Virus record (IMG/VR): IMGVR_UViG_2531839239_000021
DNA length: 4,423 nt
Source: a virus
Taxonomy: Duplodnaviria > Heunggongvirae > Uroviricota > Caudoviricetes
Direction: 5' to 3' (one strand)
Shown: positions 3,043 through 4,423 of the stretch, in pieces
Layout of the letters: the number at the start of each line of letters is the position of its first letter
Position numbering within the stretch: position 1 is the stretch's first letter
Made by a program: the position numbers and the translations under genes
The notes under the pieces: model-generated
Databases searched by the model: none
Told to the model about the DNA's origin: nothing
The model's input: the letters and a program-made list of their open reading frames with translations, nothing else

Positions 3043-3072
3043 AGTTTAGTGTTTAATAAACCATTAAGTCAA
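3043..3072 (-). promoter_or_regulatory. PR-like leftward promoter for the ydaS-like operon, with an embedded 11-bp palindromic operator
   Basis: Minus-strand -35 TTGACT (plus coordinates 3072..3067), 18-nt spacer, -10 TAAACT (3048..3043). The perfect odd palindrome GTTTAATAAAC (3051..3061) lies in the spacer. Predicted transcript start is about 22 nt upstream of ATG 3014. Confidence 0.55.
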
Positions 3073-3076
3073 GTAT

Positions 3077-3975: not shown

Positions 3976-3993
3976 CTTTCACTACCAATAGAA

Positions 3994-4039
3994 ACATAAC
4001 AACCGCAACGACTTTATCAAAAGCGTTGTGTTTGTTATG
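3994..4039 (+). terminator. Imperfect 16-bp inverted repeat downstream of the toxin gene; candidate weak terminator or protein-binding site
   Basis: CATAACAACCGCAACG (3994..4009) and CGTTGTGTTTGTTATG (4024..4039) are reverse complements apart from two positions (one a G-U wobble in RNA), with a 14-nt loop. The stem is A/T-rich and no clean U-tract follows, so terminator function is uncertain. Confidence 0.3.
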
Positions 4040-4056
4040 TCCCGCGGTTTAGTTTT

Positions 4057-4096
4057 TACTTGACTTAAGTTTAATGTTTATTAAACTAAAAATACC
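4057..4096 (+). promoter_or_regulatory. PL-like rightward promoter/operator unit, an inverted copy of the PR-like unit at 3041..3075
   Basis: -35 TTGACT (4060..4065), 16-nt spacer, -10 TAAACT (4082..4087). Palindrome GTTTATTAAAC (4076..4086) overlaps the -10. The 12-mer TACTTGACTTAA (4057..4068) is identical to the minus-strand sequence at 3064..3075; GTTTAGT at 4047..4053 and ACTAAA at 4085..4090 echo the half-sites of the 3024..3099 region. Confidence 0.5.
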
Positions 4097-4423
4097 AACC
4101 CACCCCGCCCCACAGAACGCAGGGAAATACTTCGAGTTACCCGGCAGTGGTCAGGGGTTAAGTAGCCAGCCCGAGGCGTATGAACATGACGGCAGGGTTC
4201 AACTTTAATAACTATGCAGCAGTTTTTTGTTCCGCTACCCCGGCGTTAAGGGGAAACAGAGGGTTTCTCAGTGGGCGAAGTCAAACATCAGAATGGAAGG
4301 CATCCCGGGATCGGCAAAGAAGCAGCAATGGCGCTTTATATTGACATCAGCGCCATTGCAGGACAGGTAAGAGTTATCAGAGCGGTAACTAAGCGGTATG
4401 CGCCTTTACTTCAGAAAGTCTCT

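Follow-up and report, generated by a model that had tools for sequence, protein, structure and literature searches.

A conserved, covarying leader RNA downstream of the PL promoter of prophage CP-933P and its relatives

The put trait of HK022-type phages is the read-through of terminators without any phage protein, a trait that is blocked by mutations in the zinc-binding domain of rpoC. The put RNAs of phages HK022 and HK639 fold at the beginning of the PL transcript and act on the RNA polymerase, and in HK022 putL the base-pairing begins at nucleotide 3 of this early transcript (PMC9378689). Structured RNAs also occur in the untranslated early-operon leaders of phages P1 and P7 (C4 RNA) and P4 (CI RNA). 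This report concerns a structured RNA, here called module A, in a leader of the same general kind. It lies in a stretch of 4,423 nucleotides from a Caudoviricetes record in IMG/VR (IMGVR_UViG_2531839239_000021), the whole of which is referred to as the window. An original prediction had described positions 4097-4423 as a transcribed-looking region downstream of a PL-like promoter, with only a 54-amino-acid Arg-rich open reading frame (ORF), and had suggested that an N-like antiterminator or a regulatory RNA might lie there.

By sequence, the window is identified as the paaR2-paaA2-parE2 immunity region of CP-933P, a cryptic prophage of Escherichia coli O157:H7; the 444-nucleotide (nt) stretch that was tested (3980-4423) is 100% identical to E. 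coli O157:H7 genomes. The left promoter of this prophage was studied by Jurenas et al., who used GFP fusions to demonstrate that PL933P is active and that PaaR2 or YdaS represses it about 100-fold, and its -35 and -10 elements are identical to those of PR933P (PMC8630535). A promoter scan of the window recovers TTGACT-16-TAAACT at 4060-4087. These hexamers are embedded in operator-like repeats and sit where 24 nt of the PR region recur in inverted orientation (3051-3074 versus 4063-4086; repeats I3 and I21). Because it lies inside this inverted PR copy, matching the published identity of the two promoters, the site is taken to be PL933P, and the region does lie downstream of a genuine PL-type promoter. 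The PL transcript probably starts near 4094. Among mosaic relatives, conservation sets in just past the -10 element, despite unrelated repressor, toxin-antitoxin and operator modules upstream.

Very probably, positions 4097-4327 form a non-coding 5' leader of the PL933P transcript that carries two independent conserved RNA modules, with module A folding from about the third or fourth transcribed nucleotide and the 54-codon ORF being an accidental reading frame across the modules rather than a gene. The best explanation overall is that module A works through a cis-acting mechanism within this leader, an explanation that we put forward with rather less than even confidence.

Module A and its relatives

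The closing stem of module A, P0, encloses a three-part hairpin (P1b, P1a and P2), the small hairpin P3 and an invariant single-stranded stretch (Table 1). About 35 unpaired bases are invariant across several enterobacterial families. The stems of homologues differ in sequence and retain their pairing. In an anchored, almost ungapped alignment of 25 sequences with a structure drawn by hand, 78.5% of the helix cells are paired, versus 30-42% when the 3' partners are slid; both-sided changes are found in 19 of the 25 pairs, and covariation is 0.425, compared to at most 0.107 for the slid versions. A covariance model, R1, was built from this alignment and used to re-align 52 distinct copies, which come from Escherichia, Serratia, Pectobacterium, Symbiopectobacterium, Superficieibacter, Winslowiella and Arsenophonus. 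The paired fraction in this larger set is 87.1% (24-44% when slid), compensatory change occurs in 21 of 25 pairs, and covariation is 0.454 (at most 0.108 when slid). R1 matches the window on the plus strand at 4092-4206 with 120.9 bits (E about 1e-37) and finds no further copy in it. The conserved covarying structure at 4097-4199, which went unnoticed in the original prediction, exceeds what is expected by chance.

Automatic treatment of 51 sequences with MAFFT and RNAalifold misaligned the helices and returned only the invariant 3-bp hairpin. Inspection by eye suggests a possible alternative in which the invariant GGC and the bases after it pair with part of the 5' strand of P1b (for example, CCCGCC with GGC(A)GGG). 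A pseudoknot between loop bases AUAC and linker bases GUAU was also considered and was rejected when inspection of other clades showed that the pairing is not kept.

Table 1. Features of the PL933P leader and its surroundings (window positions; L001 is the extended locus, in which window position = L001 position - 2021)
Feature	Position	Strand	Description
Hairpin, 22-nt arms	3994..4040	+	inverted repeat I4, 82% complementary, 3-nt loop
PL933P promoter	4060..4087	+	-35 TTGACT 4060-4065, -10 TAAACT 4082-4087
Module A	4097..4199	+	conserved structured leader RNA; covariation and covariance model R1
P0	4097-4101/4195-4199	+	closing stem of module A
P1b	4102-4106/4154-4158	+	helix of three-part hairpin
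P1a	4110-4113/4147-4150	+	helix of three-part hairpin
P2	4119-4124/4140-4145	+	helix of three-part hairpin
Apical loop, 15 nt	4125-4139	+	AAAUACUUCGAGUUA; consensus CAAKACNNCGAGUUA; essentially invariant
Core	4159-4193	+	UAAGUAGCCAGCCYGAGGC-N(2-4)-GAACAUGAMGGC (N4 in window); essentially invariant
P3	4165-4167/4175-4177	+	small invariant hairpin
54-codon ORF	4180..4344	+	not conserved as a gene
Variable linker	4200..4228	+	semi-conserved GCAGCAG 4216-4222; indels shift frame between variants
Module B	4229..4256	+	GUUCCGC 4229-4235, then CCCC 4238-4241/GGGG 4250-4253 hairpin, loop GGCGUUAA
99-codon gene, 5' part	4328..4423 (to about 4627; L001 6349-6648)	+	extended ORF, phrog_21318
ECs_2282-family zinc-ribbon ORF, 3' end	4406..4423 (ORF 4406-4606; L001 6427-6627)	-	RefSeq

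Of 5,426 complete E. coli genomes, 3,748 (about 69%) contain 80% or more of the segment 4088-4270, at 1 to 8 copies each. In K-12, module A is found without annotation in prophage Rac, between racR and ydaG. A search of one-genome-per-species and viral collections with the core pattern AAGTAGCCAGCCNGAGG retrieves homologues, besides those in Escherichia, from Pectobacterium, Serratia, Symbiopectobacterium, Superficieibacter, Winslowiella, many Arsenophonus contigs, one phage that was deposited under Actinobacillus and over 100 prophage contigs in IMG/VR, amounting to at least seven genera overall. Module A can precede a gene directly, nutL and N, or the second conserved element of the leader, module B. 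It is a separate unit upstream of a nutL slot, which holds nutL, module B or nothing. No module A was found in Qin-type leaders or in lambda.

Several minor observations concern these relatives. Arsenophonus carries very many copies (loci L017, L022, L023, L027, L031, L036, L037, L046, L049, L063, L065, L067, L075, L076, L088, L094, L096, L101, L102, L111 and L122); two of them can lie 1.9-2.7 kb apart on the same strand, and after each copy comes either nutL with an N-like gene or, directly, a gene. A Citrobacter freundii prophage (L257, 4547-4622, minus strand) has a shortened module A that R1 scores at just 12.8 bits, with P0 as AUCAUC/GAUGAU, a short hairpin and the core GAAGUAGCC-GCCGGU-GGC-GUAUGAAUGACCGG. 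The lambda PL leader (L260; J02459, about 35,520-35,582) has GCAGGACGC in common with this shortened form and, just before boxA, CAUGAAGGUGACG in common with the 3' end of Arsenophonus module A; these strings may, on a weak likeness, be a vestige of module A.

Reading frames across the leader

The landmarks of the original prediction are all present in the DNA: the first ATG after about 4094 is at 4180-4182 with GAGG at 4173-4176, the ORF that it opens gives the 54-amino-acid translation, and the C-rich tract (4099-4111), the TTGACA hexamer (4341-4346) and the ATG at 4398 are where they had been placed. None of these features exceeds chance as evidence of coding, and the 4.4-kb window contains 47 ORFs of at least 30 amino acids. 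The doubt that the original prediction itself had attached to the coding evidence was justified, with neither frame nor length conserved and no curated family matched. In an alignment of nine E. coli and phage variants, the first ATG becomes AAG in phage Evi and in strain CREC-629, and indels of 1, 3 and 4 nt within the ORF shift the frame between E. coli variants. Only the second AUG (4186), which is within the module A core and has the GAGG nine nt upstream, is conserved. Among scorable distinct copies the ORF that starts there runs for anywhere from 4 to 130 codons, and its peptide diverges by frameshift beyond M(T/K)A. The 54-codon frame is therefore not kept in related prophages.

It is extremely improbable that this region encodes a 54-amino-acid basic protein, possibly an N-like antiterminator. 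The ORF is there, with GAGG upstream, some phage records annotate an ORF at this place, and a PHROG family (phrog_37620, of no known function, 46 positions) spans the first half of it as its single protein-family match. Against these points stand the lost first ATG, the frame-shifting indels, the variable length and the absence of any Pfam or NCBIfam match, N_peptide included; we read phrog_37620 as a grouping of gene-caller ORFs. Furthermore, in BLAST comparisons 4092-4256 and 4229-4423 each behave as a mosaic module of its own, and the Arg-rich C-terminus is encoded by module B and variant-specific sequence, in other words by separate mosaic modules. The ORFs that have been called over module A in some phage records are probably spurious. 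Of the two suggestions made for the region, the regulatory RNA is upheld by the covarying structure, and the N-like gene is rejected.

In the commonest E. coli variant (the IMG/VR cluster of L144, 57 copies), the ORF from the leader AUG has no stop through module B and enters a DUF1391 (YdfA/YdaF-like) gene in frame, giving 76-80 codons. The phrog_751 and phrog_37620 profiles include extended leader-ORF calls of this type, and the extension could be due to chance or could be an N-terminally extended isoform.

The conserved AUG raises another possibility, namely that translation from 4186 is itself regulatory. Ribosomes starting there would compete with P0 and P3 and would become coupled to RNA polymerase, and the coupling would govern Rho access or downstream translation. 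All scorable copies do keep an in-frame AUG, with both sites present in 47, the second only in 67 and the first only in 4; this tally leaves aside 52 pattern matches in which neither site has an AUG or anchoring failed, mostly taken as chance, among which L107 looks by eye like one decayed true copy. The GAGG is invariant, the 3' strand of P0 lies 9-13 nt past the AUG, and the short ORF of Arsenophonus stops 6-8 nt before boxA. However, the peptide is unconserved after its first residues and has no fixed stop, and both AUG and GAGG fall inside a block that is invariant as RNA, so that a constraint at the RNA level explains their conservation equally well. Control by a leader ORF is distinctly unlikely.

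Known elements and possible roles

We suggest, tentatively, that module A is a cis-acting leader element that engages conserved host machinery, probably RNA polymerase during elongation, and thereby keeps the long early-left operon expressed. The partner is probably a conserved host component, because the unpaired bases are invariant across families while the flanking phage genes and repressors differ. In this model, module A would fold as it emerges from RNA polymerase, and the folded RNA would either make contact with the elongation complex or protect the nascent leader against Rho and 5'-end-dependent decay. Transcription from PL could then run through the early-left operon, that is, through the 99-amino-acid gene, ydfC, the DicF terminator, dicB, the exonuclease gene and xis/int. 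Module A would work like the HK022 put RNA without being related to it, and module B might contribute a nut-like function in the E. coli prophages, where no recognizable N gene was found. The DicF terminator is upstream of dicB in the left operon, a position that calls for processivity. In K-12, silencing of racR has been reported to derepress the genes of the Rac left operon from ydaG to intR (bioRxiv 10.64898/2026.09.06.749655).

The closest functional analogue, by the analogy of position and architecture, is HK022/HK639 put. Like put, module A has several stems and conserved unpaired bases, belongs to the early transcript directly after PL, and is found where no N gene can be recognized, in this case among the E. 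coli relatives examined. The two differ in that there is no homology of sequence or structure, in size (about 103 nt and a closing stem for module A, about 70 nt in two stem-loops for put), and in the co-occurrence of module A with nutL and N. HK022 also has a second put copy after PR; the window has no module A copy on the PR side, and HK639 has putL only. A covariance model of put (R2, built from HK022 putL and putR and HK639 putL), which gives its own members 54-98 bits, had no hit in the window, the extended locus or relatives (best E = 1.8, elsewhere), and R1 had no hit in HK022 or HK639. One likeness to putR noticed by eye (GAACG...CCCGGC.GUGGUCA.GG) was set aside as chance; the helix strands in which it falls are variable in other genera, and the two models were negative.

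Module A is not a nut site. A lambda-type nutL occupies the operon place that module B has in E. coli, with module A upstream of nut. The nut-like boxA and boxB elements that had been proposed as something to look for were not found in canonical form in 4097-4423, where the boxA consensus YGCUCUUUAAC has no match at up to 2 mismatches. The hairpin of module B has a 4-bp stem and an 8-nt loop, while boxB has a 5-bp stem and a GNRA-like pentaloop; the GAAAGA loops of module B in Serratia and Winslowiella are boxB-like, and some relatives have GACAA-containing loops. In Arsenophonus and Symbiopectobacterium, by contrast with the E. coli leaders, a canonical boxA (CGCUCUUUAACA) follows module A by 17-35 nt, with a boxB hairpin and an N-like gene (24-26 bits to Pfam N_peptide, and 50.8 bits to PHROG 271, "anti-termination protein N-like"). 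N-like genes were seen only in these two groups of relatives. The Pfam N family had no match in ORFs of the window or in the first ORFs after the leader of the E. coli loci tested, and an Arg-rich ORF from Pectobacterium, searched by tblastn and BLASTP, had no match in E. coli loci, the query itself being Kil-like rather than N. This query comes from Pectobacterium-type loci (L071 6445-6576, L138 and L216), which have an Arg-rich ORF of 41-45 amino acids (MNIRQFRxAQRLA...SSKKWDAANRIMARA) after the leader. The idea that it is an N protein that marks module B as a nut site was abandoned upon finding a weak PHROG Kil match (E = 1e-3) and no N family.

The dicB operon of the K-12 prophage Qin (dicA to ydfA-ydfB-ydfC-dicF-dicB) is a homologous left operon, with ydfC, DicF, dicB and ydfD in common. 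Its leader has an identical module B just before the first gene and, in place of module A, a short 5' hairpin (ACACCGCACGGUGU). This simple hairpin, placed early in the corresponding leader, fits the possibility that module A is a 5' stabilizer against decay by RppH and RNase E, or else a processing site for RNase III, E or P that sets the half-life of the leader. Also in keeping with stabilization, P0 begins within a few nt of the predicted transcription start, and module A is independent of the genes downstream. The roughly 35 invariant unpaired nt, however, go far beyond the needs of a protective hairpin, and no tRNA-like or RCCA feature points to RNase P. We regard a role in stability or processing as unlikely.

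The C4 and CI RNAs suggest a different role, in which a trans-acting noncoding RNA (a small RNA, sponge, or decoy or anti-defense RNA) would be cut from the first RNA made upon induction. Such a function would suit a mosaic module that is autonomous, opens the earliest transcript, occurs in many copies per genome and has loops that are invariant across hosts. Unlike C4 and CI, module A has no Rfam match, no conserved complementary targets downstream and no tRNA-like processing signals. A search downstream for complements of its loops gave only 7- and 8-mers at chance level with no conserved site, most clades have no terminator after module A, and it matches neither C4, AgvB, AsxR nor other small RNA families in Rfam; the prophage Pas/AgvB/AsxR small RNAs are located elsewhere, near late genes. 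A trans-acting role thus appears unlikely. Permissive cmscan of the whole window against Rfam 15 gave a single hit, a chance miRNA match at 3994-4040 (E = 0.25), and a full-text literature search with the module A motif sequence turned up no relevant paper. Module A forms a new family of RNA, and the system to which it belongs, the leader RNAs of lambdoid early operons, is of a known kind.

A junction of several stems, with invariant junction and loop nt and variable, covarying helices, is also the look of a riboswitch, and module A could in principle be a ligand-sensing leader that ties early-left expression to a metabolite or an ion. It matches no Rfam riboswitch class, and neither a terminator nor an alternative structure that would sequester a ribosome-binding site can be recognized as a conserved expression platform, making this very unlikely.

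Several observations weigh against the proposal of a plus-strand, cis-acting RNA that works on host machinery. In Arsenophonus and Symbiopectobacterium relatives module A stands beside an N-like gene with canonical boxA/boxB, which would make an RNA antiterminator redundant, and Qin-type phages and lambda run comparable left operons without it. The conserved GAGG-N9-AUG in the core might instead reflect translation of a tiny leader ORF. Folded as a single sequence, module A is not more stable than its shuffled versions (z = 0.82). The antisense strand folds better in 49 of the 52 sequences (mean -30.9 versus -25.0 kcal/mol), and helix cells with A-C or C-A (53) outnumber those with G-U or U-G (24), which does not favor the plus strand.

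The last two structural observations are those expected if the functional RNA were made from the minus strand, antisense to the PL leader. This lean is weak and confounded by base composition: an antisense rich in G and U generally folds better, and the A-C cells cluster in a few clade-specific pairs. On the minus strand, neither a promoter to the right nor a terminator to the left is conserved; the U-run beside P0 occurs only in the O157 variant, and module A is always co-oriented with PL and with any nutL and N that follow. The plus strand was assigned because of this promoter and nut/N context, and an antisense RNA is highly improbable.

The cis-acting leader is the reading that we prefer. 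It is possible, if on the unlikely side, that module A, borne by Rac/CP-933P-type prophages across Enterobacterales, represents an unrecognized class of RNA that binds host machinery, either a termination-resistance RNA unrelated to put or an early decoy or anti-defense RNA. Prophages of the Rac, Qin and CP-933P types are the commonest lambdoid elements in E. coli, and their early-left operons carry genes for the division inhibitors Kil and DicB, the small RNA DicF, RecET-type recombinases and excision functions. Module A provides a concrete candidate for the means by which prophages in which no N was found carry transcription of 10-kb operons past terminators. Should RNA polymerase, Rho or the ribosome prove to be its binding partner, module A would be a new regulator of elongation based on RNA; should it act in trans, it would be a new prophage noncoding RNA.

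Module B and the surrounding immunity region

The stem of module B covaries across genera, appearing as CCCC/GGGG, ACCC/GGGU, GCCC/GGGU, CCGC/GCGG, GCCG/CGGC, GCCAG/CUGGC, GCGU/ACGC and GCC/GGC. The module B block is identical in Rac-type and Qin-type leaders, including that of K-12 Qin upstream of ydfA, and it occurs without module A in K-12 Qin, mEp460 and PPompW. Module B is followed, in most relatives, by the first gene, whose Shine-Dalgarno sequence and start come within about 10 nt.

Extending the window to the right, as the original prediction had advised, reveals that a 99-codon gene follows, starting from the ATG at 4328 in another frame than the 54-codon ORF; it is the first gene of the PL operon in the O157 type, and the first convincing one. 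The ATG at 4398 opens an ORF that even when extended has just 32 codons, a length that marks it as spurious. The 99-codon gene matches phrog_21318 over residues 20-118. Homologues in Klebsiella and Citrobacter, at 60-64% identity, have a strong Shine-Dalgarno sequence and an ATG at the aligned start, and the part that codes only in the sense direction shows conservative replacements. Almost the whole of this ORF is overlapped, over about 200 nt, by an antisense zinc-ribbon ORF that matches NCBIfam NF047912 with 57.3 bits (cutoff 37), and whose homologues (60-70% identity) keep an open frame, their own Shine-Dalgarno sequence and the CPEC...CxxCGH motif. The overlap is less diverged than the sense-only part in two of three comparisons, and substitution counts by codon position make both ORFs appear constrained. 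The two may be a genuine overlapping gene pair. In Klebsiella, the pair is found in the PR operon after ydaS, still in the sense orientation with respect to the operon.

RefSeq annotation of the extended locus places ydaV/ydaU-type replication genes, ydaT and a cro-like regulator on the minus strand; on the plus strand, a 124-amino-acid PaaR2-like repressor is followed by a small antitoxin-like ORF, the ParE toxin and then a gap. The hairpin at 3994-4040 lies between the parE2 stop codon (3975) and PL, and probably serves as a terminator, keeping the paaR2-paaA2-parE2 operon apart from the PL operon, a function that we infer from its structure and place. Past the gap come ydfC, DicF, dicB, ydfD, an exonuclease gene with an IS1203 insertion, and xis/int. 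DicF is an Rfam match (76.7 bits, L001 7281-7332), 1.2 kb downstream, and directly after it, between ydfC and dicB, L001 7330-7539 matches STnc100 at 39.7, below the gathering score of 47.

Two further observations were made to the left of the immunity genes. Between the O-like replication gene and ydaT, a 163-codon ORF on the plus strand (1592-2083) overlaps a 186-codon ORF on the minus strand (1767-2327), neither of which RefSeq annotates in full. Within the O-like gene itself, iteron-like AAGCCCCTT(N) repeats, both direct and inverted, occur at 1073-1114 and 1329-1381, and these repeats may be the prophage origin.

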